Assembly: GCF_021869535.1 (NCBI RefSeq) | Contig: NW_026262745.1 | Location: 41,540,001-41,604,000, forward strand | Length of the DNA: 64,000 nucleotides | Reading direction: 5' to 3' | Source of the DNA: Mytilus californianus | Taxonomy: Eukaryota | In this document: positions 1-22,395 of the stretch, in pieces | Numbering within the stretch: the stretch's first letter is position 1 | Layout: every line of letters starts with the position of its first letter | Program-made: the position numbers and the translations under genes | Notes under the pieces: model-generated | What the model was told of the DNA's origin: nothing | The model's database searches: none | Seen by the model: the letters and a program-made list of their open reading frames with translations, nothing else

Positions 1-3000
1 AAATTAAACTTTATATTAAAGAATACAAACTGACTGTCTTTTCTGTAAATAGAACTAAAAAACTGACATGGGTTAAATCAAAGTGAGACAACCAATCTTC
101 CTGAATCAAATCAGTTAAAAAGAAAAATAATGAATTGCCATATGACCTTTTACATTGAAGGGCTAAACTTGCATTAAGCCGTGTTCGGACCCTTAAATAG
201 AAAATAAACGGGGACATAGAGTAAATTTGCATGGGACAAAATCGCACATAATACATACAAAAAATACAAATTATCAATGAACAGGGCTTTTATTCCTGTT
301 CTTCGTCTAAAAGTCTAACACTGAATCTATATATTTTGCTTTGAGACCAGAATATTGTCGAAAAAATAATAATAATTAAAACAAAACTTGCGTTTCAGAT
401 TAAGAAAGGGTCCGGGAAACGCTCAGAATGCACGATTTTGCGTTATTTTTTCATAAGATTCTGAGGGCCTTGAGCGGCCCAAAGACCTTTCGCCGAAAAA
501 ATTTCGCATCGCTCCAATTTATATTGAGGTTAAAACAAAGACAGCGATATGACACTATTGATGCCTCCACGGATAACAACGATAACACCAGCTGGAGAAC
601 AACAGAAGTTACGTTTAGAATGGATGTGGTTTACTGTCATACAAGTGAGAAATTAAGCTAGCTATAAAACCAGGTTTCATCCACCATTTTCTATATATAA
701 GGAAATGCCTGTACAAAGTCAGGAATATGACAGTTGTTTTCGATTCGTTTGATGTGTTTGATCTTTTCATTTTGCCATCTGATAAAGGATTTTTGGTTTT
801 GACTTTTCCTTGGAGTTCCGTATTTTTTTTATTTCACTTTTTCTACTAAGAGTGTTTTTTTTTAGAGTGAACAAATATTAAAAGCTGTGATTTTCCGGTG
901 AAAAAAAAAAACTCATACTTTGTATTGACAAACGACTTTCACCATGAAAGTTTATTAAATTACTTTAGCTTTCATTCTGACTAATCATCTCGCCACCGAT
1001 TGTAACAATTGGTAAGATTGTATTCCTTTAAAGAGGAAGAAATGTATAAAAATAAGTTGCTTAATGTTTTACTTACATACATAGTTATGAACATCTACAA
1101 GTACAAGTCATTAATCAAGCTCCGAAAAATAAGAAAATACCTAACAAAGAAGAATCCCTAACTATCCGCTAGAAAGGTTCATGAGGTGCCAAATAAATGT
1201 CAAATAAAATGTATAACAAACTTCGCAGCAATGTTCAACTATTCTAGACTTAATGGTTAACAATATGTTTTAGATACAACTTGAGGGCGCTAGCCCGAAT
1301 TGGTGTATCTAATTTACACCAAGATATTACTATCAATCAAGAATGATAGTTTTCAATATTTTAGGAGTGAGTCTTTCAGCGATTTGATCATATATAATTG
1401 AAAAGTATGATAACTGCAGGGTATCTCATTTCATTTAACGACATATATACTTCTTTAAATTATATGTATGCCGTGTTATAATTAAACATTAAGGAATCAT
1501 GAAAAAGTGAAATCCATCAAAAGATATATATAAAACATAATGAAACGGCATGTATGTGTGATAATTATATTTAAATCATCTAATTTATTATAATAAACGA
1601 CATGAAAATCTTAAGAAGAAAGCCATTTAAAAACTTTTCCTTGAAATATAAAGAAAGAGGGAAAATGTAAAAGAAAGGGGGGAAATGTAAAAAACAAAAA
1701 GGAGAAAATTTGAAAATAAATTATATATCACACTTTAGGATATTTCTAAACGAAAAATTCTATAAAAATTGGCAGACAGTTTCGTGTATGAATTATTTGA
1801 AGTAGATTTTCTTCTAAATATACAATTTTATATTCTAATATAAATTTATAGGTCGTGAGTACTACAGAAGACAAAATAAATCAGAGTGCAAAAAGAATGG
1901 TAGGAATCATAGACAATATTTTGGCTAGAAAATGCATGGAAATGGAGATGGGACAAAATGCAGAATAAATTACTTTTAGTAAGTAACATAATAGCCATCC
2001 TTTATGCCACATCGGATTCGAAATTCGCAGATATATATGCATAAAATGTTTAATATTACCGTTAATGCTGGTGTATTTAGATTTTACTTCGTATTTTTTC
2101 CACAAGAATTATTTATTTAGGTATAACGTTTTTTTGACATGGTTCTTTTTCCTGTATCCATATCTACCCTCAATTTTCCTGCTTAACTTAGCTAGCACGG
2201 TGAAGTCTAACCATTATGGTAAAGCATGCCTTATGCATATTGCTGTGCCTAGTATAGGCTAGGTAAAATATTAAAAAAGAGTCTTTTCTCTACCTATTTA
2301 TCATATTTTTGTTGTGCCACAACACTGGAAACAATGTATTTTTTTTGTCTTTTTGCTTATTTTTTAGGATTAAGTATATTTTTAAGAAGTATACATTGAG
2401 TACTCATTTATTCATTACTTTATTACAGGGGCAGTGAAATAATTTTTATGAAGATATGCTATATTGGATAAGAATTAAACATAAGACGGAGTCAGAAATA
2501 GTGACAAAAGAAAGTGTAGCAGAAAACAAAAGAAACACTCTTGTGAATAAAAACCATGTTAGAATACAGAACTAGGAAAATAACTGTATGAAGTGAATTA
2601 CATATACAGTAATGAATTATCATGACTAGACTTTATAATTTTCATTCTAGATCTGATTTAGCAACGTGTAGATACATAAAATTAAACTTTTAACACTTTG
2701 CTGGTTGTCTAGTAAAAATAAATTATATATATTCATACCTTTGTGTTCATATTTAAGAAAAATAGGTAGCATGGATGTGTTGATTGAATTCATTCGAATA
2801 TGGGTAAAATTCTAAAGTACAATTCCTGGAGAGAAAGATTGATTGATTGTTGGTTGCTTAAACGTCCAGTAGCAAATTGTTCATGCATGTTCAGGAAGAT
2901 GGAGAGAAAGTGGCAAAATATCAAATTGTCAGGGTAGTATGTAAGAAACAAAATGGTATAACAACAGTGATAACGCAATAATTGTAACATTTTATAAAAC

Positions 3001-3139
3001 TAATACTTTTGCAATTTTGAACTGATGTAAAAACCAGGAATTATTTCAGTTGTTGCTTGGAAGGGATTTTAGCATCCTTCATATGGATCGAAAAGTTTAC
3101 AAATTGAACCAACGGAGTGCCAACGTTTGTTAAAAGTTT

Positions 3140-3380
3140 GTATTACTACGTTTTCCCAACGTTTGTTCAACATCGGCCGTTTTATTCCATCATTGGGCCA
3201 ACGTTGGAACTATGTTTAGTATAAAACATTACAACGTTGTGCCAACGCATAGCCATCACATTGGGCCAACATAGGGCCACTTTGCACTTATACATTGGGC
3301 CAACGTCTAAAAACAACGTTGGGCCAATGAATGTAGATACGTTGGGCCATTGTTGTGCCAACGTACAAATGTTGTCTGAG
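3140..3380. mobile_element. MITE-like fragment with many CCAACGTTGG-type subterminal palindromes (CMC/EnSpm-like non-autonomous element, tentative)
   Basis: Repeated ttgggccaacg/caacgttg motifs in both orientations, ending in ...tgttgtctgag. Confidence 0.45.
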
Positions 3381-3395
3381 ACTAGGTTAAATTTG

Positions 3396-3600
3396 GGTTC
3401 CAGATTGGTAACACAAGGTTCTTTTTAGGTTCCAGATTGGTTACAAAAGGTTCTATAAAGGTTCCAGATGTGTTACACAAGGTTCTATTAAGGTTCCAGA
3501 TTGGTTACACGTGGTTCTATCAAGGTTCCAGATTGGTTACACAAGGTTCTATCAAGGTTCCAGATTGTTTACACAAGGTTCTATTAAGGTTCTAGATTGG
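3396..3600. repeat. 32-bp minisatellite, about 6.4 copies
   Basis: Head-to-tail unit ggttccagattggttacacaaggttctatcaa. Confidence 0.9.
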
Positions 3601-6241
3601 TTTTTCATAACGTTATATCATAACGTTCTTGTAACGTTACTGATAGTCCACACTTTCCTGAACGTTTTTGTGTTTTGTGGGTCTACCTATTCAGCTTTTA
3701 GATCTTAAAACATTAAATGACCGTTATTGGCTTTATGTTTAAGCATGGAAACATTATTATGAAATTACCTCGATAGGACCATTGCATGATTTAATTAATA
3801 GAAAAATGCATTAACGTAACATTGACTCAAATATACAGTTCCAGTTCCAGTTCCGGTACAGTGTGTACAACTTAGATCAAGATGTCTAAATCAAATAACA
3901 TTTACCTAATATGTCCTCTTCATTAATGTTGAGAAGTCAACGATACAGAAATCCAACGACAGATAGAACCAGAAGTCATCTTGTGATCAACATACCGTCT
4001 ATGGCAATTGTTTTCCCAACCATCGTGCGATAATACATTTCATTTGATATTCACGCTATCTTTAAACATTCTTAAATTATTACAACACAAATATCGGTTC
4101 TGGTTGGTTGCTCTAAGATGTGGCTAAAAATCTATTGGCCAGAATGAGAGATATAGAATTGTGAACATGTCCCGGACAGGAGAAGATATCAAAAATGAAA
4201 GATAGAGAATAAAATTTATCAATTCTGCAAGTGACCCACATCATTAAGATGTGACAAGGTATTGTACAACCACTGAAGGAGTTTATGAATTAGGACAGGA
4301 AACATTTACATTTGGGGATCTTTTAAATATTTCAATTGTCTATCTTCATGATATATGAACTTCGATGCTTAGTCATGATGGTGCAAGTTCACAACTTAAT
4401 CGCTTATTCGGATATTAAAACTTATAGCTAAATTTTGACTTCAATAAGATACTAACGAAATGAAATGGAAATATATAGATTCGACATTTAGCAACCGAAT
4501 TTCTATTTCGCCCCTGAAATCTCTTGTAATACAACGTATAACACAAAAATATTGCACGTACCTAAAATATTTTCAACAATTTTCTTTTAGTTGAAGCCTT
4601 TATGTCTATAACCCGTTTGAAATGGAGACCGACATAGATCTCATTTAAAGAACAGCAAAAATTGAGTCTAAGGTTTGAACCAAGTATGAAAATTGAGCAG
4701 TTGATCTACAAATCTTTCATTTTTCATACACAATGTTTTTAATACATGTGTGTGTGTGTGTGCCTTATGGTCAACAATAAATTATTATGAAAATGCGAAA
4801 TTAAATTTCTTACCATCTTTTATCGGAGTTACACATAAATGTTCACAGCTGCCCATAAATTGTAAGAATAAATGCAAAATTTAAAAGTCTAACAGGTGTA
4901 TTTTTTTGCTTACCTGGTGCAAAGGACATAGCATTTCAAGTACAAAATTATAAACAGATACGATAGGAGCGCATGATATTACGTACGATTATAAATTACA
5001 GAGGGTTGACATTTTATGTATCTTACTGAACGAGCTAAGCTATTTGTCAAAGTACTTGACTTATACATATAGAAATGGCCTAGTATTTTGTGATTCAATT
5101 AGCAACAATCTTAAACAACTAATTGAAACCAAATCGAAGATTCCAAGTCTACCAAGAACCTGACTTTGTATGCAGATTAGGTGAGGATATATTACGGTAT
5201 TATACTTGAAATATCGAATGACGTCCTTGTACAAATGATCGAACACATAGGTACCGATTATCAGGTTATCTGCATATTGATATTGTAAAATATCAGCTGC
5301 GAGTCACATAATGAAGTTTTTTGTCGAGTAAGCGCAGCGCACGAGTTCAAAAAGGCTTCATATTCGGGTCAAACTTATCAACGTCGGTTCATTCATTGTG
5401 ACATCAGCGATATGTAAAGGTCACAGTTATTAATGTGGCCAGGTCAACGTATTTGACGCCACAAAGCCGTAATATGCAATTTTATGAAGACCTGAACAGA
5501 GTGATACAGACAGTGGGAACACCGATAAACAAAAGTAGACAATAATGTCGATGTACTCACTGGGTTAATTAGAAAAAAAACTTGCATTGGAAGGTAATTA
5601 CTAGTCTCAAGTGCGGATCCAGCCATTTTGAAAGAGGGGTTCTATTCCATAAAACGGCATGAAATTTCACAAAATTAAAAAACGAATCTTAAAAAAATCA
5701 TCAAAAACAGCCCCCCCCCCCTCACACACACACCCTTTAACCGGTACTGAGTCTATCACTACCTTTAAACCGCAAATTGTCGTACGGCCGTAAAACTGTC
5801 ATTTTCCGCCCTGACAATATATAAAATAATTTCTATTGTACACGGTATGCAGTCGGCTTTTCGAAATTCATAAATTTGTATTTGTATTTTTTGTAATCAT
5901 CATTTATAGAGTTGGAGTAATTGGCAAGAACTTTTGAAATGTCAACATGTATACAGGTGAGCAAGTATAAACTTTCAAACTTCCGACATGGATAATTCCA
6001 CATGAACAATTTAAAGTTAAAATCTATATGACATCTTTTTACAAGCTTTGCGTATTTTACAAATCAAATGTAAAGATTAAAATGTGAAATCGTGTGTTTT
6101 TAACCGTGAAATCTATTTGGGTACATTAACGATAAGTAAAGCTGTGCGTTTAATTTCCTAATTTATGTTATTGTACTAATACTAAGTTTGCAACAATCTA
6201 ATTATATTTGACCTCCGACGTTTGACTGTATTTTGATATAA

Positions 6242-6560: not shown

Positions 6561-6736
6561 TCCTAATGATGATCGTAAGGTGGTTTAAAATTGCTCAAAT
6601 TCTATTCATTTAGACACTGTTGGGTAGTTGTCGTCTGAATTTATAATCATACCATATCTCCTTTTTTATGATAAATTACACTGATTTTATATAGTAATAT
6701 ATATGTTTCCATAATTGTTAGTATTACCTTTCACGT

Positions 6737-7189
6737 TTGATCCGTGCCAATTGGCAAACTATTGCCAAGCACCCAAAATTGTTCAAGATCTTTCCCAATC
6801 CTCTTGTCTTAGCCTTTCGGAGACCAGCAAGTCTGAAAGACTTATTTGTGGGAACTGACGTCTCCTCTAATAAAAGCTGTTCAACTGCAGGATGGTGCAA
6901 GTCGTGTGGTAACAGACGATGTCTGACTTGCCAACAAATACTGAATACTCAAACATTTACTTGCCACTCCACTGGGTCTGTGTACACTATATTTTGTAAT
7001 GTAACTTGCAAACCACAGAATGTTGTATACCTTCTTCAGTGTCGATTTGGTATGCAGTATATTGGCGAGACAGAACAGGGGCACGCACAAGCTAATCTCA
7101 AAAACCTTACAATCACAATCATAGACCACAACGAGGGTTGGTCAAGGGCCGAAAGACTTGCTCGGGAAAGGTTTTGGATAAGAAGCTAA
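6737..7189 (+). pseudogene. PLE C-terminal Cys-rich linker plus GIY-YIG endonuclease (5'-truncated, internally deleted)
   Basis: AFRRPASLKDL, CKSCGNRRCLTC, NVVYLLQC..MQYIGET and RERFWI motifs. Confidence 0.88.
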
Positions 7190-7214
7190 GGACAGTTTCC
7201 CCAGAGGGCATACA

Positions 7215-7982
7215 TGAAAAAAAACATAGAATGAGTCACTCATTTTCCCTACCATCACTCATTTTCCTGACATCATTTGTTTCCAGTTACTCCGGCTTCC
7301 TTACTTGACTCTTACAGTTTTAAGGATTCGTTTGGAATTTTTTGAATTTTACTAGTTTAAGTACCAGGGTTCTTTTCATTTGGTAGGGATGTACAAGTAC
7401 GCATCCACGTCCAATTATTTGACCTTAGCCCAAATTTACTATTATTTTTTCTTTTCAATATAAAACTGCTATTTATTTGGGATGATAAATACGCAGCCTC
7501 TGTTTGACATATTTTACCAGCTTATATCGATCAGTGCTGTTTTTTTTTTGGGAAGTTGTTGCAACATCTTAACTGACGTCATTTTGGAATTTAAGAGTTG
7601 TGCCAGTTCATATCACTAATTACTATTTTCATTTAGGCATGTCTTTGAGTCGTTTTTTTGAAATTTTAAAAATTTATTAGCGTCTCTTCATATGATGTTT
7701 GGATGAAACTGTTTCACTTTTTTTATTGTATAGAATTCAAGATTGCTATAGTTTAATAATCAGAATAGATTGATCTGATTCATTTTACATCGTGTTCATA
7801 CTGATGAAGAATATCTGTTATCCGAAATATTTATAGTTACATTTGTTCGTTTATTGTCATTTTTTGGTGATGTTGTACCCTTTTAGACTGGTTATATATT
7901 ATATTTTGTAGTGTACTGTATCATATATATATGTTCCGTCGCCCCGTAAGATTTATCGTTGGCTATTATTCAGTCATTTAAT
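7215..7982 (+). repeat. PLE pseudo-LTR copy 1
   Basis: About 770-bp high-identity direct repeat of 21200-21975, lying between the EN end and the start of the next ORF. Confidence 0.88.
7801..7835 (+). ncRNA. Hammerhead-ribozyme-like core in the pLTR (second copy at 21789-21823)
   Basis: CTGATGA-stem II-GAAA. In copy 2 stem II is GGATA/TATCC; stems I and III are not clearly formed. Confidence 0.4.
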
Positions 7983-8007
7983 ATTTTTACCTTTTTTGTA
8001 GTCTGCA

Positions 8008-9262
8008 TTGAGTGTGTTCACTCGATCCGATATTCTTACTGCATATTCCATCATGCATTTGCAATTTCATTTTAAGAAATTAAGATCTTTTACTATCAAA
8101 ATTATCAAAACAGAACATCATATTTCAAATTTAGAAATCTTCATTGATCAAAGAATTATTCCGAAAGGGTTAGTTTTAAAAGCTTCGCCACTTACAACAG
8201 GAGAAAAGTCAAATAGATTTTTCCATAGATGGAATAAAATTCTATACAACAGTTCTTTTAGTCTGATGGATCTTTTACGGCAAGAAGCAACTCATCAAGT
8301 AAATTATTTATATAAACTTCGTGATAACTTGCACTGCCGATCTCGTGAACTATTGTCTGATCTTGAACTTGACGAAATTCAAGTACGTCTTGGTGATATC
8401 AAACGTATTGAATCACACAAGCTCCACGTCAAACAGATTAACAAATTTAAACGTGATGGTGTGCAAATTAATCACCCTTTAATCAGACCTTCAAAAATTT
8501 CAAATAAAAATAAAAAGCCTCGCAACCGTAGATTTCGAAGAAAAAGTCAAATTCCAGTCAATTCTAACAACACGGTTGTCAATTTATCAACAGTCTCTTT
8601 AACTGAGGACGAAATTAAAGTCTTATCTAAGGGTTTGAATTTTTCCCTACTTCCAGTAACATATATAATATGAAACTGGAAGATAACCTTAATAACTTTG
8701 CCAGAATCCTCAGAATCAAAGAATATTTTGGTAACAAGGATAATGAGGAAGACTCAGACACGTCTGACTCGGAGGAAGACACCAGAGTTCCGCATTTTAA
8801 AAAGAAGAGTTCATGGATTCCAAAACCTAGTAAATCTGCTACACTGGAAGATGTTATCGACAAAATCAAATCGGATGTTGTTCATCTAGCTAACAACAAG
8901 TACTCGTCATTTTATAACACCTCTTCTGACGAGAAAAAAGCCATACAATCGCTGAGAAACCGAGATGATATTGTGATAAAACCAGCAGACAAGGGAAGTA
9001 CCGTTGTGATAATGGACAAAGCTAATTACATCGCGGAAGCAGAGCGTCAGCTCTCTGATGAGAGATTTTATAAGAAGATTGACTTTGACCCTACTTCCGA
9101 GTTTAGTTCCAAATTTATTACTGCGTTACAAACCATGCACGATGACGGTCACATAGATGAGGATATAATCGGATATTTAAAACCAGAGAACGCCAAGCCT
9201 GGTCATTTGTATCTTCTTCCTAAAATACACAAGGTTAACAACCCTGGTAGACCCATTGTATC
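8008..9262 (+). pseudogene. PLE ORF N-terminal region up to the start of the RT domain (frameshift near 8670; cut off by the Polinton)
   Basis: IIPKGL, LSKGLNF, DIVIKPADKGSTVVIMD, LYLLPKIHK and PGRPIVS motifs, ending abruptly at AGTAGT. Confidence 0.9.
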
Positions 9263-9399
9263 AGTAGTATTGTAGTGCACGTTCTGAAACAGGAGGAGCT
9301 TGGAGGAACTTGGAGGAGGTCAATCAAAGTTCAAATATGTGACATTCCAGCAATTTGGAGGAGGTCAATCAAAATTCAAATAAGTGACATTCCAGCAAT
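9263..9399 (+). repeat. Polinton terminal (TIR) region with two 45-bp tandem units
   Basis: AGTAGT at 9263-9268; ttggaggaggtcaatcaaa.ttcaaata.gtgacattccagcaat at 9310-9354 and 9355-9399. Confidence 0.75.
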
Positions 9400-9929
9400 T
9401 GTCAGAATGATGTCATTGTAAACATTGGTATACCTTCTTGAGTATAGAAACTAATATGTTGTTTTGACAGGTAGTAAATGGCTTTGAAAAAGAAAAAGAT
9501 GATTGAAACAGATTAAAATTTATTCACATTTAACATCACTGTTTCAAGTGTCTAAATTATTTTTTAAGGAAACATTATGTTCTCAATAAACTATATATAT
9601 ATATATATATATATATTAAAAGACATAACCTAAGCATCTATCCATTATTGTTGTAAAACAATATATAAAACATATAATCTGATTGTGTTACCCGATATCT
9701 TTTTTGATTGAAGAAATATATGACTTGAGAAAATTATGCAATGTATTATTGTAAAACATCAATATATAAAAACTTATAACCTGATATATCATTCAAAAAT
9801 ATGTTACCTGAGATATTTTTGATTAAAAGAAATACACCAGTTGAGGACAATTATGTGATCAATCCTATTATGAAATTATGACTTCAGGAAAATTATGCAA
9901 TGAATACTACTATGTATTTACACTATATT

Positions 9930-11109
9930 TTGGCACTTATTACATGATGTAAAATAGACTATAAAAAAACAATATATGACAACATCAACCATATACATAC
10001 ATATGATCAATCTTTAACACCATGTAAAAAAATCAGTAAATAAAAAAAAAAAAACATATGACCCGAGAGAAAATATATTGAGCTCACTAAATTAACATAT
10101 ATTAAACTTTGAACTAATGACCCAACCTTCCAAGTTTGTCATGATGGTACCAACAGTCTGAAAAATAATATAAAACATTAATTTTCAATCATTACTCTAT
10201 GTTAATGTCAGGTCAAGTTAACAACAATTTGTATTCATTTAAAAAATCAGAAGATATGGTATGAGTGTTAGTGTTGTTTTTATCATAATTAATTATACAT
10301 ACCAAATGTTTAAATTCTGTAGACATGGTAGAGTTAACTGTTGTTGATGAAAGTGAAGACACAATGGTTGGTTTTTTCAAAGCAGGTAAAGTTGGTTTTT
10401 TCCAAAGCAGACGGCGAAGCTTTCTTTTCAATAGTTGTCATGGTAGTTTGTGTAGCATGTTCTGTGAGAGATTTCACTGTAGTTGTAGGCTGAAAAAAAT
10501 ATCTACAATGGTAAGCATTTACAAACTTACTTTAGATAAAAAAATATTGTCAAATAACTCTCTTAACCAGTGTCTGAATATGTTTAACATTGTAAAACAA
10601 AAATAAAGGGGGGGGGTTTCAAATGAAACATTTTTTTTTCATTTTTTTGTGGCCAAGTTGGTTTATTTACTTTGCTCCACCATACAATATTATCTATTTT
10701 TTATAAATAAGAATAAATACATTGATAATTGTAGGAACAAGATCAGTCAAGGGATAATTAAGAAGAAAAACCATATTCTCAACGAAGATGATGCATAAAG
10801 ACTTACACACTGTTCATCGTGAACACAAACAGCTGTTGCACCTTCTATGTGGTGGCAGCACTACTCAATGTCCCCGTCTTCTATGCGTACTGTTATACCA
10901 TCTACTTTGAGTGTGGATGGCTCAAACAAGCGATCCATTATTAGGGTGGACACTTCCTTCCGTTGCTTCTTCAAGATGTAATCATTGATTCCAGTGTGAC
11001 GACAGCGTATGGCGTCTCCCTCGTTCTCACAATCTTCTCCAATTCTTTCAGACTTGCGTGCAGGTGACGCAATAACTTGCACTATCAAAACGAAGATGAA
11101 GATGTTCAT
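9930..11109 (-). pseudogene. Multi-exon secreted/type-I membrane mucin-like glycoprotein gene within the Polinton
   Basis: Exon 11109-10807 (hydrophobic N-terminus, Cys-rich, internal TAG, GTAAGT donor); exon 10489-10303 (Thr/Ser-rich, TTTCAG acceptor, GTATGT donor, 1-bp insertion); exon from 10157 (TTTCAG acceptor); decayed hydrophobic stretch about 9930-10010. Confidence 0.6.
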
Positions 11110-11619
11110 TTTAACAATTTGTTGTTGTTTGTTTACTGAAAATTTTCTTACATGATATGGCGCGAAAATGAAATGACGTTTGTACGGGAAAGAGATTTGA
11201 CTTAATACTAAAGAGATACTTTTCATATTGCAAAGGAGATTTAAAATGTTTTTCTAGAATTTTTAGTATCAGTTATCTTTCAATGGTATAAATGAATCAT
11301 ATTTTGATAAAATCATCAATTCTTTTTATATTATTTTCATGAGTTTGTTAATTAACAATAATTTTGAGTACGTTGTATTTAAATGTTGGTATTAAGTCAC
11401 TGTTATGTCTTTGAAACAAAACTCTGATTGGTTGAAAATAGATTAATTGTGTAAGGGATATACTAAATAAATAAACGATGTGTAGGAGAGTGAAATTATT
11501 CCGGAATATTATATTTGTGCGTGTTTTAACTAGAAGGAAAAATACAATACATTTCGGTTTAGTATCAATTTAATTATTGATTGCTATTTTTATATCCTTT
11601 TAAAAAGAAGACTAAATCA

Positions 11620-12400
11620 ATCATAAGTGGTCTGTAGCTCCCCGTTTCTTTCTCCAATCTCTTGAATCCATTTTCTTAACTTTGGTATCTCCGTATCTTC
11701 CTCATTGTCAAAAACATGCTTTTTTTTCTTTGCCCCGAGGGATTCCCGGGACATAGAAATAGGACCCAGCCCCTCCAATCTGCTGCGTGGTAAGACCCCA
11801 CCAAAGGGAGGGAACTTTCTGCTGTGAAAAATAATAATTTAAATAAACTAATATATATATACAATTTAACCATTTAAATATATCGTCTTTTTTCGGGTGC
11901 TACTCTTCTCCGCAGAAGCTACGGGATATATAAATATAGTTTCAACAGGGCGTGTCAAATCTTTGATCAATCCCCAAGTGGTCTGTCGCGCCCCGTTTCT
12001 TTCTTCAATCTCTTTAATCCATTTTCTTAATTTTGGAATTTCTACATCTTCCTTATTGCCAGAAACATGCTTTGTGTTTCCTCTTATGGTAAGGGTGATA
12101 TCTACACCATAGGGAGGGAACTTTCTGCTGTGAAAAATAATAATTTAAAATAAACTAATATATATATATATACAATTTTACCATTTAAATACATCGTCTT
12201 TTTTCGTTGGCTACTCTTCTCCGCAGAAGCTACGGGATATATAAATATAGTTTCAACAGGGCGTGTCAAATCTTTGATGAGTCCCCAAGTGGTCTGTCGC
12301 GCCCCGTTTCTTTCTTCAATCTCTTTAATCCATTTTCTTAATTTTGGAATTTCTACATCTTCCTTATTGCCAGAAACATGCTTTGTGTAAGTGTTCCCCT
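11620..12400 (-). pseudogene. Small unknown Polinton gene with a triplicated ~35-aa motif
   Basis: KHV..N.ED.EIPKLRKWI.EI.ERNG..QTT read in three copies; near-identical tandem duplication 11805-12077 / 12111-12388. Confidence 0.5.
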
Positions 12401-12741
12401 ATTCTTGCGTTGTCTTTTTTTCCCTCTGGTATGTATTTTTATGTGATATGAATTCAATGTTATTCTTTATTGGCTGTGATATTTGTTGTGTTATGTGCAC
12501 GTGTAATTTTTTTTGTATGAATAAATTGTGGGACTATGGCGGGAAATTTGTGGGTGGGAAAATTTCCCAAAATGATTATTCAAATTTTCATGCTTCAAAA
12601 CGGACTAATGGTATGACATGAAGCTTTTTGGGGTGGGTGGAGTTAATTTTTTCTTGACAAGGGGTTGGTTTCATCGCATCTTACAGAGAGTACATATATA
12701 AAGTCTTTCTCATTTCAAATTTTTTAATTTCTACATTCATT

Positions 12742-13537
12742 ATGGCTATGGAAAATGGTTCACGATTTGTGTTTTTGGAGAAATCCAAAAATAGGAAAAA
12801 AGAATATTCCCATAGATTTGGTAATCAAAAGAATGTTGTATTACAACAATCTAGTAGGGGTAATTTTTTTGTCAATATTTATGACAACAGACCGAATTTT
12901 AATGGACGAATTTCATTTGCTTTTGAGGAAGCAGTTCAATTTAGTGAACTCGTTAGTCAATTGGAGATGTTGAAGGAAAATTTCAAAGTAAGTCTATTTT
13001 CATTATCCAAAATATGTGGTATGATTGACTAGTGAGAAAATAATTTTTAAATATAAAGTTAAGAAATTTGGGATTTTTTTTATAATTAATAAAGATATTT
13101 TTATAATATGTAAATGCTGTCTTACAGCTAAAGGGGGAGGGGGTTTAATGTTGATCTTATTAAAATAAATAAATTTGAAAAGATTTTAAATTTGACTTAT
13201 TTGCAGAGCTTTCGGAGAACTTTCGACTATAATGGAAAAAAAATATATAAAACTTATAAAAAAAATATAAAAAAAATGCAAAAAAAAAATGCTAAAAAAA
13301 ATTTAAAAAAATGTATTTAAGGAGGAGGAGGACAAACCAAGTCCCCAATTCTACAAAGAAATTTCTCAAGAACCAAACAACGTTAACACTACAAGACACC
13401 AAAGAAATGGTACAACTTGTACCATTTCTAGTGAATCGCAACGGGAACCCATGCCACCACCACCGCCGTATACACCACCACCGTATACGGCACCACCAAA
13501 AAAAAAAAAAGAAAACAGAAGACGCTTACCACGTTGA
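12742..13537 (+). CDS. PC4-like ssDNA-binding domain exon spliced to a Lys/Pro-rich PPxY-containing tail (probably frameshifted)
   Basis: NVVLQQSSRGNFFVNIYD...GRISFAFEEAVQFSELVSQL resembles the PC4 fold; phase-0 GTAAGT donor at 12988; acceptor TTGCAG at 13201-13206; open frame 13322-13537 EEEDKP...PPPPPYTPPPY...KKKKENRRRLPR*. Confidence 0.5.
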
Positions 13538-14017
13538 CTTAATAGGCTTATTGAACGATATAAGTAAATAATTGTACTCTTTTTGTAAGATGAGTTTGTT
13601 TCAGGCGTTCCATAAAAGTTTTTAAGAAAAATTCATAAAATTTTATTTGCAATAAAATAACATACTAAATTATAAAATAAAACAATAATATAAAGTTTAA
13701 TCATATTTTGAAATGTCCATAGGCATAACTCTTAATATGATTAATCCAAAATCTCTTCTCATCAATGTTAAATAAACCTTTTTTAACAATATGGTTGACA
13801 ATGAGTGCATGATTTTGACTTTTTATTAATTTCATTGAATTCATTGTCGATGCATTTTGAAATAAACATTCTTTATAATTGGCATGTTTTAACTGATTTT
13901 TGACAGCACATTTTTTTATTCCTTTGGCAGTTTTCTTTTCCTGTTCCGTGTTGTCGTCATCATATATCAAACTGTACATTTTTGGTCGCAATCCAATAAA
14001 CTCTTTAATTGGAACGC

Positions 14018-14215
14018 CTGAAACAAAACGAAATTCATCAAGTATTTAGTAAAAAATTAGGTTTGAAATTAGGTTAACAATAAAATAGATTTTTGTAAAA
14101 TAAAAATAATCTCAATGGTATTATTTTTTTTTCTTTGGACTTTGTTATTTTTTATTTAATATTTGTTATTTTTAAGTTTTTGTTAATCGATTAATTATAA
14201 AATTAGTTCATAGTC
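14018..14215 (-). other. pPolB intron 3 (198 bp, phase 1, degenerate GA donor, strong TTTCAG acceptor)
   Basis: Removal restores KFKDELDG-VPIKEFIGLRPKMYS. Confidence 0.7.
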
Positions 14216-14370
14216 CATCTAGTTCATCTTTGAATTTTCCAGGCATTTTTTTTTTTATTTGTTTGGGAATAGGTAGTAAGTTTGAGGATATCCAGAAAAG
14301 TCGAAATGGTCTTTGATGATTTCTATATCCTTGTATACATCATCTGTCATGATTTCGTAACACAAGCTGT

Positions 14371-14546
14371 CTGTAAGAAAATAAGAATTACATCATTGTT
14401 TAGCTTTGACTAGCCGAATAATTCGGTTGCCGACTGAATTTATTTAACTGAAACATGCATGGTCGAAGCGGTAAAATTGATAACTTGTGTAAAATACTAC
14501 TTGTCTTTTATCCCCATAAAATATAAAAAAAAAATAAAATATTTAC
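14371..14546 (-). other. pPolB intron 2 (176 bp, phase 1, GTAAAT...CTTACAG)
   Basis: Splicing restores LLFTDTDSLCY (polymerase motif C). Confidence 0.9.
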
Positions 14547-14828
14547 CAGTATCCGTAAAAAGCAATCGAATATCTTCTTCATACATGGGCTTCATTATTT
14601 TGTAGTGGAATTCATACATCAGTGCTTTCGAAATGTCCAATATTGCCTGACCAGCATAGATTGGTTTGTTTAAAAGAATGTTCACTTTTTTGTTTTCTAT
14701 ACCCACAAGGTGTTGGTTAAATATCTGAAAATGGTCAAAGGACGGTTTCGACGTATATTTTACCAACTTCTTCTGGTCCGACATAAGTTTTACGTTTCTA
14801 TGTCTGCGAATATCTTCCATGGTCTTTC

Positions 14829-14958
14829 CTACAAGTAAAAGATCCATTAATATTTTCATTTTTTAAATTGCTTTTATGAATTCAATGTTCGATTTTTTTT
14901 CGTATCTTATTAGAAAATAAAAAAATTAAAAGACATTACAACGCAAAAAAAAACTTAC
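14829..14958 (-). other. pPolB intron 1 (130 bp, phase 1, GTAAG...TTGTAG)
   Basis: Splicing restores EFYKLRNNSVFG-KTMEDIR. Confidence 0.9.
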
Positions 14959-16564
14959 CAAAAACACTGTTATTCCTTAACTTGTAGAATTCTTTCTCAA
15001 ACACATTATTAGCCTCCCTTCTTTTTTGTCCTCAGACGGAAACGCTTTTTTGAACTGTCGAAAATGCGTAGGTCCTTCTTGTGATAAATTTTTCACTAGA
15101 GTGTCTAGAGAACAATTTAAATATTGGCATGTGTCCAAAAAGCGAGGATTTCCTATAGTGAGTGATACGTATTTTTCCATGTTATTGGGAATACAGGATA
15201 TTGGCTTATCTTTAAAACAATCAGCCCTTTGTAGTAGTAAATGTGTATCAAAATTTTTACCATTGTGGAATAATACAGGAATATATGATGGTTCTTTTAG
15301 ACTTAAATTACACCGCTGACATAATGCAAGACGATAATTAGTATAATCTTTTTTTCTGGGTTCTCTGGTTATTCCATGATGTGCATGGTCTCGTACTATA
15401 ATTACATTTTCATCAAAAAGTGTCTGACAAACCTCACAGTTGGTGATAAGTTGAAACGCTTGTTTTGCTTCATCATTCATTATCAAAGGCTCAGGTTCTC
15501 CAAGTATGTCATTGATATATTCCTCTTCGATAGCCATGTCTTCAAAAAAGTGTTCTATGACTCTATCTCCTCTATAAACCACAGGTGGTTTAGAATAATC
15601 ATCGTTCGTACATAGGACTATGTAGGAGTACCCCGATGGTTCAATTTTCGTTTCGTGTGTAATCGATGATTTCTTCGGGTTTGGTAGACTTGTATCCATC
15701 TTTCTTGAAAAACATTCAAAATCAGCTATGATGGTGAAACTTATTTTTATGGCTTTGTAAAAGTCATTAAATTCTAAAATATTGTCGCCTTCTTTCGGAT
15801 ATTGTACTCTCTGAAAATCTATTTAATCACAATAGGGTTGATGACTTGCAAGCAGGTCTTCTCTCATAAAGCCATGCAAACACCGTCGACAAAAGAAATG
15901 TGCATGATTTTGGTTTGTTTGTCTTAAAATCTATTAAGATTCTTAATCAAACAGTAGTGTGATTGTTTGTCGTTTGATAAATACAACAAGTCAATATTTT
16001 AATGGCTGTTTCTTGATTTAGATAAAGCTAAAGGGAAAATCTGTTCACCTTCATATCCGAAAACGTTAATTGAAAGGTTGTTTAGTTTTTCGAATTTTTC
16101 CACCTGCTTAATTGGAACAGGAAAATCAATTCCTGTCGTGTTCAATTCATTTTCAAACGGTTTATACCTAGTTACACGATGAGCGTTGTTATAAGTCGGA
16201 TGAATTGCAGCCAAAAAAGACCAGAGGAAGAATTTATTATCATCATTTTGAATGTTGATTACACCTTTACACAGTTGTATGGTTGAAGGAAGCTGCATGT
16301 ATGACGAATCATTAATAGGTGCGTATTTTACTGTTCTTACTTCTAAGTGTACAACTTTCCGTATTATCCAATTTGAGCCTCTATTGATGTATTCCTCAAG
16401 ACTTCGATGCATCTTTTGATAAGCCTCGTTTAAATTATGTTCTAAGTGATCATTATTAAACAAGGACGCATAATTTCTACTCCTAAAACTGGGTAAGACT
16501 GTTTCTGTTTGACCATCTTGAATATCACGTTCCATTTCAACTTTGACATTCAAATACCATTTAA

Positions 16565-19500
16565 GGGGGTACCCAACACTATACCCCAAAAAAAACCTGT
16601 CGTTTAATTTTTCTTGTTTTTATATCATTGATTAGTTAGGCCTAGCTGAACATCATGTAAAAATTTTTAAAGATTTGAACCGTTGGTTAAAAAGATATGG
16701 CCACCCAAAGATGGCATGGGTCACATGCTAATTTCGGTCGATTTTTGAAGTTCCAGAAATATGGGTATAGGAGTATAGATGTTATTTTTTTTTTTGAAAA
16801 TTAAGCCTAAATTGACAAAAGCAAGTTAATAGTGATTATTCAAGCAATTTTGAGTTGATTGATACCCTTTACTTGTAAGTTTGTGTTTCTAAATTTAAAT
16901 TTTAGTCTGAACTAAAAAGGGGGGTCTAAGATGAAGGAACCAAAAATGACTATGATTGGTCAAATATTTTAAGATAAAAATGTAAATTAAAAAAAATTGT
17001 GTCGTTTATTTTTTTTGAAAAAGTAACAATTGTAGTACTATATCAGTCTGTTATTCTAGCAAAAATTTATAACAATTTAACCGTCAGATCTAGGCCTTAG
17101 ATATTTGGCATGTGGATGTATAGTCATGAGGTTAAGTGTCTTGTGTCATGATGACCTTCATGTGACCTTCAAATTTGACCTCAATGTCAACTTAATGTAT
17201 ATATATTTAGTGAACAAATACATATAACACAAGCTCTAATCAACCATACAACAATATACACACACATTATGACATATCAACAAATTCCTTGCAAAAATTC
17301 AAAAAGGTATAGTTTCTAGAGAGGCGAAGTGTTCGTACTTAAATACCCTACAGAATGTTTTTTTAATTTTCACATACGGAATCTGCGTGTCAAAGTACAC
17401 GAGGGGTAATAAAATAAAAAAGGGAGTAACCGTTTTTCGTTTTTGAGATACGAGCTGTTGAAATTAACAGCATGAGACGCCAAAAATACATAGGATAAAT
17501 AGGGAAATTCTTAAAAATCGGAAGATATTTCACATGAACAAGATTTTCAACTTTGTTGGTCTACAGATTATAAAGAAAAGATAAACGATTCAAAAATGAA
17601 CGACGAATCCATTGGTGCAAAGAACCACTGCTTCTGAAAATCCGAACTAGGTGATAAAATAGAACTGAACGTGCAAGATCCTTATGTATAATCAAGTTCG
17701 TTAAACATATAATTTGATAGTTTTTCTGGGGAGGTAATGAAAATTAGATACAACTGGTTTTTAGTTTAAAGCAAATCAGTCTTAAAAATGCTATCACAAT
17801 GTGAGAGTCTTAACTCATTTCACCTCTCATTCCACGAAATATCAAACTACAGTAACAAGTGTCACATTATTTTTTTGGCTCCCTTATACTCTATCCAGTC
17901 ATAATCTTGAATTGAGACTTGAGAAGAAAACTTTGTTTATGACGTCTTTACACTGAATCCATTGGATGTTGGATGTGTACTGATTTATTATGTAGTTTTA
18001 GATGCATGATTGTTTTTATTAATTGTTATTGACTTTGAAATAGCTGTCAGTAAGTGTGAGTAATCTCAGACCTGTACTTAGTGTCTTTTTGTTGTTGGGA
18101 TGTACAAGTACCCGGCCACGTCCACTCTATGCTTTTGTAAATGTATTTCCATTTGTATCCATCTGATGAATAAAGCCTTTTTCAACTGATTTATATAGTT
18201 CGTTCATATGTTGTACTGTTACACCACTGTCCCATGTTAAGGAGATGGTTGGGATCCCACTAACATGTTTAACCCCGTGACGTTCTGTATGTATGTATGT
18301 GCCTGTCCCAAGTCAGGAGCCTGTAATTTATTGTCGTTTTTTGCTGTGTTACATATTTGTTTTTCATTTGTACATTAACTATGCAGTTAGTTTTCTCGTT
18401 TGAAGTGTTTTACATTTAAGATTTCGGGGCTTAATTTTTATAGCTGACTATGCGGTATGGGCTTTGCTCCTTATTTAAGGCCGTATGGTGACCTATAGCT
18501 ATTAACTTCTGTGTCATTTGGTCTCTTGTGGAGAGTTGTCTCATTGGCAATCATACCACATCTTCTCTTTTATATTTACTTCAAAATTGCATTCACTAAT
18601 TCGGAAAGATACACAAAAGCACAACAAAAGAAAACAAATTTCGCTATCCCTTCGAAATAATAATTTGATAAAGCAAAACTCACATGTTCTATTTTTATCA
18701 TACATGTGTAGTTTCAGTTTCAACCATGGTTCTAAATTTAGAATTTACATTACCCCAAAATTGCTGATGGAATAGAAGACACCCGTTTATTGTCTACACC
18801 TGCCAGGATAAATGTCGAAAACAGAGAGTTGAATGATATAGTGTAATGTTTCGTGAATTGAATCTGATGGTGTTTTTTTTTTTTCTTGTTGTTGTCTTTG
18901 TTCCTCAACTTATAAATGATGCACTAGTGGTTGATTATCGCCTTGTTACATGTATCTTCCGACTTTTTATATGAATATTAATCATGTCCTAAAATTTTCA
19001 ATTGCATTAAAAAAAAACATGACAGCGTTTTTTCAACACACAAATACATGTCATGTATAAATTATTCGTAACCTACAATTTTACACTATGAAGTGTATTT
19101 CATTCAAAACTGCAGTTTTCAAAAAAAAAAGTATCGTGGAGTCAACTCTGGTTTGATTTTAATCAATTTGGTACGAATAGAAGCATGATTCGCCTTGGTT
19201 TATTTATTTATTTGGTTATAACGTTATTGTTAGGCTTTTTACTTTTTATACTTTATACTTTATTATATTATATGTAAGGCATGGGTCAAAAAACGAAAAC
19301 AGTTCTGGTCTTTTCTTTTCCCCTTCATTTGCCACTTTGTGAAAAAATCTGACCTCCTGGTTTTCTTTTGTAAATTTGTTTCACCTTGAAATTTTCCTTT
19401 TTTGTCTCTTTGAAGATTCATTTATAGAAAATGTGTAACTTTAAATGGATTAAAAGATTAAATGAATAACAATAGGTGTACATCTGCTCTTAGCAACAAA

Positions 19501-19614
19501 GTAAACATTCTGATCAGGATCTTTTAAGTTCTTGTATATTGCATGTGATTTTAAAACGCTGCAATGAAACAGACCATGAGTTAGAGTTATCTTTCTTAGG
19601 TGTTGTGTACCCCC
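16565..19614. mobile_element. Non-autonomous TTAA-specific DNA transposon (Kolobok-like), 3050 bp
   Basis: TTAA at 16561-16564 and 19615-19618; 15-bp TIRs GGGGGTAC(C/A)CAACAC; removal restores RDIK-WYLNV in frame. Confidence 0.88.
17930..18570 (+). mobile_element. 3' tail fragment of a Naiad-type PLE nested in the Kolobok-like element
   Basis: Colinear similarity to 58570-59220, which directly follows a PLE RT remnant. Confidence 0.7.
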
Positions 19615-20502
19615 TTAATGTCTCTCATATATTTTTTCCTAGACTCGACTATTTGTTGTATATCTCCTTTAACGTTCGAAAAAAATTGTAGAAGATCGTA
19701 TTTTTCATTTCCTTCTGGAATTATTTCAAGTTGATTAACGGAATCGTTCAAAGCAGATTTTTTAACACTACGATTTCTTCTTTTCTTTTCAGTAGGTAAA
19801 GGATTTATGTTTTCGATTTGCGGATTCAAGGTGCTGATAGACGGATCAGACGATAATGGAAGAGAACTGTCTGTGATTGAATGCATTTGATCCACGACTT
19901 GCCCTGCCTGACCTCCAGTTTGATTCAATGGATGCTCTACATTGATGTGATCAAAAAGATCCTCATATGTATCAAAAGCTAAGCCACAATGTCTACATGG
20001 AAATTGTCTTTGTTTTTTATGGGATTCTGAAGCGCGAATACATTTTTCGTGTCTTTTCAGGTTCTCTAAACGTGATAGGGTTTTGCTACATTTACTACAT
20101 TCATATCTTTTCCTTGTGTGTGTGTTCATATGACGCGATAGATTAAATTTTTTAGTAAATTCTGCATCACATAAGTCACATTGATATAGCGCTTTCTTTT
20201 CCCATTGTTGAATCGTTTCATTTGATTTCCTTTTCCGATTGTAAAGTGATTCTGATGCGTCAGCTGCCCGAACCAATGCTTCTTCATCACAATCGCTGAA
20301 TTCAGAATTATTTAATGTCTCGTTAAAGTCTTGAAATAATCTTTCGAGCTGTTCGTTTCCTCTAGGATAACGTTGTTTAAAAAATTGGGAAACTATCAGC
20401 CATGGTCGATGTGAATAATAATGTAAACAGATTGCGGCTCTTATATATTTATAAATATCAGGGATTCCACACATTCTATTGTTAACATTTCTCACATACC
20501 AC

Positions 20503-20889
20503 TCATATTTTAAATGTCAACCATTTTGTTCTAGTTTGTGACCTTTTCATAGTTTTTACCCCTGCATTCCTCATTGTGCTTTTAAGTTGTTTGACTTTAA
20601 GAAATGTTGAAGGTTTCATTTTTAGATACGACTGAGATTTTTCGGTTTCAACCCCATTTAAATTTTCGTTGTGTATTTTTGTCTCTTGATGTTCATCCAT
20701 ATTTATTTTTTGTCCTTCTACATCGTCCTTGTTTTGTGGTTTAATGTCGTTTTCTGTAGTAAAAATTTCTTCAGTATGGTCTTCTTGAGGTTTTTTTTCA
20801 TGATGTTCATCATTAAGTTGTTTGTTTTCAAAGTCTTTAATTAGTCTATCATACTTATATTTAGGAATAAGCACCATTTCACGCGACAT
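20503..20889 (-). CDS. Polinton small ORF (M...MVL(I/V)P...KW.. type), function unknown
   Basis: MSREMVLIPKYKYDRL start and KWLTF end, a pattern I recognise from Polinton gene blocks; overlaps the upstream ORF. Confidence 0.6.
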   Translation of the reverse strand: MSREMVLIPKYKYDRLIKDFENKQLNDEHHEKKPQEDHTEEIFTTENDIKPQNKDDVEGQKINMDEHQETKIHNENLNGVETEKSQSYLKMKPSTFLKVKQLKSTMRNAGVKTMKRSQTRTKWLTFKI

Positions 20890-21190
20890 ATTTCATATAT
20901 GATGTAAGTAAAGTTGGTAAAAGTCTACTGATGTTCTGCAAACGAATCCGTCTTTCTTTCGGTGTTAAGTTCGAAACGGTTAATCTACGAATGGCTGCTC
21001 TGTGTCTTATTAGCGTATTTATATCGTTATCTGAGAGAGGACATACTCCTTGTATAACGTTGAAAACAATTTCTGTAACGACCTGTAGTTGGGTCTTTGA
21101 TAAGGTTGATATAACTTTTTTCCTTTGTTTTGATTCCATTAAATACTTGACTAAAGCTTCATACTTCTTTATTTTTCAGGAAGATAGACA
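20879..21190 (-). CDS. Polinton/adintovirus small basic core-like protein
   Basis: EIVFNVIQGVCPLS...LIRHRAAIRRL...RLLPTLL resembles the conserved ECxLNxLKGNVPL ORF family; 5' end probably frameshifted. Confidence 0.65.
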
Positions 21191-21199
21191 ATGGGGTTC

Positions 21200-21975
21200 T
21201 GAAAAAAACATAGAACGAGTCACTCATTTTCCCTACCATCACTCATTTTCCTGACATCATTTGTTTCCAGTTACTCCGGCTTCCTTACTTGACTCTTACA
21301 ATTTTAAGGATTCTTTTGGAATATTTTGAATTTTACTAATTTAAATACCAGGGTTCTTTTCATTTGGTAGGGATGTACAAGTACGCATCCGTGTCCGTCC
21401 AATTATTTAACCTTAGCCCAAATTTACTATTATTTTTTCTTTTCAATATAAAACTGCTATTTATTGGGGATGATAAATACGCAGCCTCTGTTTGACATAT
21501 TTTACCAGCTTATATCGATCAGTGCTGTTTTTTTGAGAAGTTGTTGTAACATCTTAACTGACGTCATTTTGGAATTTTAGAGTTGTGCCAGTTCATATCT
21601 CTAATTACTATATTTTCATTTTAAGCATGTCTTTGAGTCGTTTTTTGGAAATTTAAAAAATTTATTAGTGTCTCTTCATATGATGTTCGGGTGAAACTGT
21701 TTCACTTTTTTTATTGTATAGAATTCAAGATTGCTATAGTTTAATAATCAGAATAGATTGATCTGATTCATTTTACATCGTGTTCATACTGATGAAGGAT
21801 ATCTGTTATCCGAAATATTTATAGTTACATTAATTTTGTTCGTTTATTGTCATTTTTTGGTGATGTTGTACCCTTTTAGACTGGTTATACATTATATTTT
21901 GTAGTGTACTGTATCATATTTATATGATCCGTCGCCCCGTAAGATTTATCGTTGGTTATTATTCAGTCATTTAAT
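21200..21975 (+). repeat. PLE pseudo-LTR copy 2 (3' end of the PLE insertion)
   Basis: Direct repeat of 7215-7982, followed by the target-site duplication. Confidence 0.88.
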
Positions 21976-22395
21976 GTTTCCATAATTATACATACCGTTT
22001 AATTGTTTATTGTTTAAATTGATGGTATTAAATATTTTCAAGTATGGTTATTTTGTATTTGTCATATGATACTGTTTATTGTGCCACTATTTCGTTTCCT
22101 TTATAGATGCTATATCTAAGAGCTGGGGTAAGAGGAATGACTGCTATTACAGATGTATCAGAGAGCCTCTCTTTTGAAATATTTTAAGAGTTGCAGCTGG
22201 TACGATTGAATGAAAAGGACGAAAACAGACCCTGAATAATAATGGTCTACGAAGAAACAACAACTCATACGATACTTTTGTACGATGTGTCAATACACTA
22301 TCCTCATTTATAACACAGCCAACAGCCAAAGAAATGGCAGCGGCGATGATTGCTCAGTTGAATTGAAAAGTGCTGGTTTTTATTTTCATATAACC

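Follow-up and report, generated by a model that had tools for sequence, protein, structure and literature searches.

On the minus strand of the window, i.e. the whole 64,000-nt stretch of Mytilus californianus DNA analyzed here, the reading frame of a protein-primed DNA polymerase (pPolB) is interrupted by three AT-rich spacers. The initial annotation had regarded them as spliceosomal introns inside the catalytic motifs of a Polinton replicase. This raises the question of whether the spacers are introns of a lineage of mobile elements, removed by the host, or insertions that are specific to one copy.

The interrupted polymerase gene and its full-length sister

The spacers were mapped on the minus strand by motif anchoring, and their previously given positions, lengths, phase 1 and splice ends were all re-found. 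The features of the window copy are the following:

9263..21201, minus strand: Polinton remnant, about two thirds of the 19.1-kb element; blastn match to the full-length sister, mostly 90-98%
9263..9355, plus strand: terminal inverted repeat end, starts with AGTAGT, matches both ends of the sister
13701..14017, minus strand: pPolB exon 4, KxY motif to stop, open for 104 codons to the stop
14018..14215, minus strand: intron D, 198 nt, phase 1, 18% GC, TTTCAG acceptor, no GT donor; splits the Gly codon of KDELD-G-VPIKEF
14216..14370, minus strand: pPolB exon 3, starting in the second half of motif C; reading frame disrupted, two stops read from its start
14371..14546, minus strand: intron C, 176 nt, phase 1, GTAAAT...TTACAG, 28% GC; interrupts the codon of the second Asp in FTDT-D-SL
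14547..14828, minus strand: pPolB exon 2, KTME to FTDT, 282 nt, open
14829..14958, minus strand: intron B, 130 nt, phase 1, GTAAGT...TTGTAG, 20% GC; interrupts the codon of the Gly in NNSVF-G-KTME
14959..16564, minus strand: portion of pPolB exon 1 between the exonuclease region and motif B, both included, with an internal deletion at 15027
16565..19614, no strand assigned: insertion in exon 1, 3,050 bp, short inverted ends, TTAA duplication; absent from the sister
19615..20410, minus strand: 5' portion of pPolB exon 1 with the C2H2 zinc-finger region; its start is an approximation taken from the sister

Introns B and C lie in what we take to be motifs B and C, respectively, whereas intron D is placed downstream of the conserved KDE segment, outside any catalytic motif proper. 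The description of the spacers as lying inside catalytic motifs thus applies to B and C, but not to D. Given the composition of the window, the chance of finding GT and AG at one fixed placement is 0.0027, and it is 0.05 within 19 placements. When a splice signal was not required of the aligner, it placed the best gap at most 8 nt away from an equally long GT-AG pair in 6 copies, at 16 of 16 junctions, with 0.05 expected per junction.

The window occupies G000:C165:41,540,001-41,604,000 of a 1.65-Gb genome. With exon 2 as the query, 466 candidates were found in this genome, and 150 of them were scored. One relative, hereafter the sister (C154, 19.6 Mb), was 98% identical to exon 2 of the window, and the others among the 150 scored reached at most 66%. 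The sister is a full-length element of 19.1 kb (G000:C154, 19.59-19.61 Mb) with inverted ends and a 6-bp duplication. Its three spacers have lengths of 143, 170 and 192 nt and are all GT-AG, so the spacers are not specific to the window copy. The notion that the donor of the third intron has been lost in the window was also borne out: no GT donor is present there, while the 98%-identical sister has GT-AG, as was found at site D for 11 of the 11 copies tabulated besides the window copy. Exon 4 of the sister, used as a query, gave a 97% match in the Mytilus galloprovincialis gene model P0139.

The window copy is a dead remnant of one intron-bearing Polinton family. It has kept the right terminal repeat, and the left half is gone, with the genes for integrase, capsids and protease and almost the entire ATPase gene. 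In comparison with the sister, about 955 bp of the motif A region are deleted at 15027, the frame is broken near 20388, 20043, 15930 and 14257 (exons 1 and 3), and exon 3 comprises 155 nt instead of 153 nt.

Several side observations concern the remnant and its surroundings. The 3,050-bp insertion at 16565-19614 has GGGGGTAC-type inverted ends in addition to the TTAA duplication, and presumably resembles a Kolobok-type DNA transposon of the non-autonomous kind. A reverse-transcriptase-like ORF beside a GIY-YIG-like ORF is interrupted by the end of the Polinton (6722-9275 and 21202-21979); this arrangement looks Penelope-like by eye and had no Pfam match. About 770 bp at 7218-7986 recur at 21202-21979 (94-99%), exactly at the end of the remnant. 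Downstream of pPolB and inside the element, two to three imperfect repeats of 311-351 bp (11625-12389) have a counterpart of about four 363-bp units in the sister. A small ORF downstream of pPolB (10861-11253, minus strand) has a hydrophobic N-terminal stretch and possibly encodes a secreted protein; similar small ORFs follow pPolB in the elements e007 and e017, and between families they appear unrelated at a glance.

The sister and its relatives share the size of 19-21 kb, inverted repeats starting with AGT and a 6-bp target duplication with the "Mytilus Mediterranean mussel adintovirus" and animal Polintons, as well as the gene set of rve integrase, putative capsid, adenain protease, putative A32-like ATPase and phi29-like polymerase. 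When AG...CT ends were tested, inverted ends were found in 8 of 8 elements, i.e. the sister and seven others, and the window remnant has kept one end. A 6-bp target duplication, different in each case, flanks 7 of the 8 elements, e006 being the one without a clear duplication. The integrase of the sister, which is absent from the window remnant, matched Pfam rve (E 2e-8) and has a chromo domain, and its adenain-type protease matched Peptidase_C5 above the cut-off (E 2.9e-6). The match of the ATPase to Pox_A32 was weak and below the cut-off of 22.8 bits (E 5e-4, 20 bits), while its position and P-loop fit. The capsid-like gene has Atlas neighbours at 0.98-0.99, with PF21738 (DJR-like) in 14-30% of their members; it had no Pfam match, and its own structure model was weak (pLDDT 46.6). 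A Pfam search of the polymerase pieces of window and sister yielded no polymerase match, and PDB sequence searches found no polymerase either. The deposited relative P0141 (63% to P0139) was modelled with a pLDDT of 85.5, and the top 9 Foldseek hits of this model were phi29 polymerase (best E 2.8e-9). In unbroken intron-bearing elements, the integrase, capsid, protease and ATPase genes are single ORFs, and among the core genes only that of the polymerase is interrupted.

One clade of intron-bearing polymerases

In total, 84 copies were mapped onto one natural uninterrupted copy, which served as the yardstick. These copies were the top 30 and hand-picked others of the 150 listed matches, and therefore shares among them are not genome-wide estimates. 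Four recurring intron sites were found, at yardstick positions 1038.2 (A), 1041.1 (B), 1135.1 (C) and 1189.1 (D), all confined to a stretch of 152 codons, the whole gene having about 1,290. The combination depends on the family and is D alone, C+D, A+C+D or B+C+D, the last one in the window and the sister. The original count of three introns is thus correct for the window/sister family, but elsewhere families carry one, two or three introns at the four sites.

All carriers fell into one clade, which comprised 34 of the 84 selected rows (SH-aLRT 100 in a quick tree), and sites A-D were absent from all 50 mapped rows outside of it. At least one site was labelled in 32 of the 34 clade rows; of the other two, the first is truncated ahead of D, and in the second a deletion begins inside intron C. 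A tree of 28 representatives supported a clade of 9 with 100/100, and its three subgroups form an open fork. The proposed lineage of intron-bearing virus-like elements was therefore recovered, with a sister that has three GT-AG spacers, the same nucleotide sites across families of the same genome, and a single clade in the polymerase phylogeny.

The junctions were characterized in 12 representative copies. GT-AG was found at 27 of 29 junctions, and the two exceptions belong to decayed copies. Donors are of the GTAAGT/GTATGT/GTGAGT type, acceptors are pyrimidine-rich YAG, intron lengths are 112-754 nt, and retention leads to an early stop at 29 of 29 junctions, 1-56 codons past the donor. The introns lie directly behind AG or between two Gs, and these contexts are built of invariant codons. 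YTRAY branch-like words were present 12-50 nt from the acceptor at 17 of 29 junctions, a count that has no control set. Long matches between intron bodies occurred only at the same site within one family, and the others were short AT-rich matches. In 10 intron-bearing loci, Rfam gave 0 matches at the gathering score, and thus no group I/II ribozyme structure.

Some aligner calls were not counted as introns, namely those of 43-74 nt near yardstick 961, which are a protein-level insertion, those of 951-969 nt near yardstick 718, which are an in-frame domain, and large insertions in single copies. The insertion at 718 is an in-frame stretch of about 320 aa inside pPolB (L066:2916-3941, minus strand, also in L063, L064, L079 and L080). 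It characterizes an intronless Polinton family of the same genome and is absent from the close relatives L078, L059 and L065. Its DIDMKNAHP and FDG motifs recall what we take to be a family A (TVpol-like) polymerase domain. Its Atlas neighbours are unnamed viral clusters at 0.96-0.97, the nearest named neighbour is DNA_pol_A at 0.81, and there was no Pfam match. In the literature passages checked, no mention of a PolA-like domain nested in pPolB was found.

Other data sets contained the same sites. The ends of ORFs were read from the best 120 relatives of exon 1, and the junctions were deduced from these ends alone. ORF-called proteins ended at A (e.g. P0006, P0008, P0010, P0012, P0013, P0015 and P0017), at B (P0047, P0061, P0077, P0083 and P0111) and at D (P0003, P0005, P0014 and P0016). 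ORF callers cut these proteins at the junctions, as had been anticipated for ORF-based surveys. Deposited gene models of M. edulis, M. coruscus, M. trossulus and M. galloprovincialis, which may be predictions, read across intron sites. Exon 3 is included in the models P0141, P0250, P0252 and P0253, and donor C is joined to acceptor D in P0139 and P0125 (RefSeq XP_063447806.1), from two Mytilus species. P0128 is DAC81352.1, the PolB of the "Mytilus Mediterranean mussel adintovirus", and falls inside the intron-bearing clade. Its sequence continues across A and C, but another protein of its 90% cluster ends at A, and therefore DAC81352.1 was probably annotated as joined.

A metagenome and viral set of 82 loci (80 metagenome loci and 2 viral contig loci) was also analyzed. 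Most of the 80 metagenome loci are intronless, 5 have credible GT-AG introns, and both viral contig loci are without introns. L151 and L180, with 37-41% identity in exon 2, have GT-AG introns exactly at B and C, L182 has an intron at C, and L119 and L133 have introns at other sites in the same two motifs. Trees uniting the B carriers or all carriers were rejected (p-AU 3e-4 and 3e-7, the groups having been named after an earlier tree), and the ORFs that end at B form a further clade. Parallel gain at the same nucleotide in distant lineages is the simplest reading that these comparisons suggest; very old introns with many losses, or transfer of introns by recombination, would be the alternatives. 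On balance, it appears rather probable that introns were gained in parallel in polymerase motifs B and C, in separate lineages and to the nucleotide. Sites A and B are 8 nt apart, and the data speak neither for nor against sliding of an intron from A to B, because the AGY Ser codon that is required by site A also occurs outside the clade and B occurs in other lineages. This codon was found in the window's family, in 20 of 57 metagenome rows and, among the readable copies that do not belong to the clade, in 8 of 37.

Two individual sequences of these sets are worth recording. L180 (metagenome contig JAAIGG010261117.1) has five GT-AG introns in pPolB, including motif A (892.1), B and C. P0101, a Logan ORF of the clade that ends at B, stops after the KPIY segment, which hints at a further site between B and C.

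Transposition, selection and RNA

Five copies of the A+C+D family, located on four contigs, are 98-99.8% identical over most of 18-20 kb. Each of these young copies has inverted repeats and a 6-bp target duplication that differs from those of the other four, and all of them have retained A, C and D. Therefore, the introns were present in the parent and were copied along. In L055 and L106, which branch within the A+C+D group, precisely intron A is missing, which shows that it was cleanly lost or exchanged.

Between the families, silent sites have mostly reached saturation, and dN is 0.13-0.39. Where dN/dS of the downstream exons could be estimated, it was 0.07-0.25, e.g. 0.17 for exon 3 of e006-e003, 0.12 and 0.09 for exon 4 of e007-e022 and e004-e006, respectively, and 0.20 for all downstream exons of sister-e004. 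For a young copy versus close decayed copies, values of 0.27-0.64 were obtained for all downstream exons. The downstream exons are under purifying selection. Ten copies of the young family showed 28 distinct indels in 892 intron nt versus 6 in 1,410 exon nt, a contrast that is inflated by homopolymers. The main argument for splicing is that it would be needed because coding sequence is conserved behind stop-filled spacers.

Four RNA runs were mapped on 10 kb of the sister (L193, G000:C154:19,597,601-19,607,600), and three of them are unstranded contig sets that were guessed to be RNA. In these three sets, none of the 9 listed joints was at B, C or D. Record 5 of X1 reads through B, and record 10 of X8 reads through B and C. 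A contig piece of X9 spans L193 7603-7884, near the borders of exon 2, and was left out of the joint counts. The raw RNA run contained 0 matching records among 10.3 million, about 6% of the run.

Four of the 9 joints have CT..AC ends, with the full splice consensus on the opposite strand, and stem from two organism labels and two studies. They are located at 149-1540, 2859-3216, 2859-4540 and 3332-4539 of L193, run opposite to all genes, and span the capsid, protease, ATPase and polymerase genes. The antisense exons contain no open frame of more than 77 codons. Because of the opposite-strand consensus at four joints and the lack of a long antisense frame, the contig sets therefore contain spliced, apparently non-coding antisense RNA from a copy that is about 4% diverged. 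This RNA is possibly a silencing precursor or read-through from convergent small genes. The read-through contigs are probably antisense RNA as well, in which sense introns would stay. No sense joint together with two read-through contigs is the outcome that the initial annotation had named as speaking against splicing, but the contigs are strandless and antisense RNA is present. The dependence of the replicase on the host spliceosome thus follows from the conserved splice signals, the stops upon retention and the purifying selection downstream, but the RNA gave no sense joint.

Competing readings and known systems

Taken together, the spacers are very probably GT-AG introns that occupy fixed sites in a single clade of Polintons that are intact and have transposed recently; the major spliceosome of the host likely removes them, giving a full-length protein-primed DNA polymerase. 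The integrated element would be transcribed in the nucleus by the host RNA polymerase II, and its introns would be spliced constitutively by the major spliceosome; unspliced RNA, with stops 1-56 codons past the donor, would yield no working enzyme. Polymerase and integrase would then copy the element as DNA with the introns in place, and each new insertion would inherit them because the element copies itself as DNA. The introns may have been gained and lost singly, at AG or GG contexts set by invariant Gly, Asp and Ser codons, and may persist at these sites because only exact loss keeps the motif. D would probably be the oldest, followed by C and then by A or B, with the three subgroups forming an open fork in the tree.

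Looked at alone, the window copy, which is decayed and carries another insertion, would suit spacers that are copy-specific insertions or introner-type transposons and landed after integration and decay, and in dinoflagellates, introners do invade integrated polinton-like elements, as excerpts of 10.1101/2025.03.18.643946 state. However, the spacers occupy identical nucleotide positions in independent insertions and distant families, and no repeated body is shared between sites. The shared positions rule out a recent copy-specific origin, and we regard this reading as extremely improbable; an introner origin, if any, would be ancient, and the bodies have since diverged. It also seems very unlikely that the spacers are kept in sense RNA and that the intron-bearing copies are non-autonomous and are copied by the polymerase of intronless Polintons. 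The missing sense joint, the two read-through contigs and the many intronless families in the same genome would agree with such an arrangement, but in intron-sharing families the splice signals and the downstream coding sequence are conserved across silent-site saturation, which indicates that translation of the downstream exons is needed, and the other core genes are intact.

The initial annotation had further proposed that splicing acts as a switch on replication, for which two gene models were the extent of the support. Regulation could operate via somatic retention or via skipping of exon 3, which comprises 153 nt and has phase 1-1 in the sister, so that the frame would be kept and the catalytic Asp of motif C would be lost. 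The models P0139 and P0125, which join donor C to acceptor D, and the existence of read-through contigs point in this direction. However, skips that keep the frame are automatic when all introns are in phase 1, and exon 3 is present in four other deposited models (P0141, P0250, P0252 and P0253). Moreover, the splice sites are of strong consensus types, the intron bodies are not conserved between families, and families without introns do well in this genome, making up 50 of the 84 selected rows. A regulatory role is therefore unlikely. A composite scenario is likewise doubtful, in which motifs B and C would be recurrent landing sites, independent gain would be combined with recombinational movement between co-resident elements, and skipping of exon 3 would yield a full-length but catalytically dead polymerase that stops replication.

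Intronless core genes are the common description of Polintons/Mavericks and serve as a search filter, although the definition itself rests on the ends and the gene set, and the whole clade departs from this description in its polymerase. Family B polymerases can contain inteins and self-splicing introns, which are retained next to motifs B and C because an imprecise loss would be lethal there; in contrast, the mussel spacers are non-coding, AT-rich and GT-AG, with no Rfam match in 10 loci. In adenovirus, a nuclear virus, the mRNA of the protein-primed polymerase needs host splicing, by which a short leader is joined and the catalytic domain is uncut, whereas here the catalytic domain itself is cut by introns.

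According to the parts of the sources consulted, no introns were seen in intact vertebrate Mavericks (PMC8097293), and the core genes of nematode Mavericks are called intronless, with introns placed in the cargo (10.1101/2022.07.12.499685); in contrast, the polymerase of the mussel clade is interrupted. Introns that travel inside a mobile Polinton are common to nematodes and mussels, but the nematode introns are in captured host genes, and the mussel introns interrupt an essential replicase. Excerpts of 10.1101/2025.03.18.643946 describe dinoflagellate maverick-polinton-like elements with introners, which belong to repeated families of transposons and for the most part entered after integration. 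Introns of the spliceosomal type within full-length polinton-like elements are shared with the mussel, yet the mussel introns are old, non-repeated in comparisons among the intron loci, fixed in position, inherited by the element and confined to the polymerase among the core genes.

Spliceosomal introns in the polymerase are not mentioned in the consulted parts of 10.1101/2023.08.22.554363, PMC8502044, PMC12220804, PMC11296320, 10.1101/2024.03.25.586562 and 10.64898/2026.10.13.758929; the main text of PMC8502044 contains no "splic" and one unrelated "intron", and its supplement was examined in part. The search turned up no paper on conserved introns in the polymerases of Polintons; subscription journals, Repbase and bioRxiv supplements lay outside of it and may hold an earlier notice. 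No prior paper on an intron-containing Polinton polymerase thus came to light, and the deposited DAC81352.1 already reads across A and C. In summary, the clade is a real variant of animal Polintons that appears not to have been described before, and the DNA supports it well.

Bivalves are among the animals richest in Polintons. Published surveys define intact Mavericks by intronless ORFs (PMC8097293) or ignore introns (10.1101/2025.04.19.649669), at least in the parts of these sources consulted, and therefore active intron-bearing lineages would be scored as degraded or missed. An element with an intron in its replicase gene would depend on nuclear transcription and on splicing by the host, and this is relevant to the way in which polintoviruses replicate. 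Since intronless families closely related to the clade reside in the same genome, the clade may offer a small set of natural comparisons of how introns are gained, lost and acquired in parallel at one site in a gene of viral origin, and in this mussel Polinton clade these processes would be approachable with ordinary RNA data.
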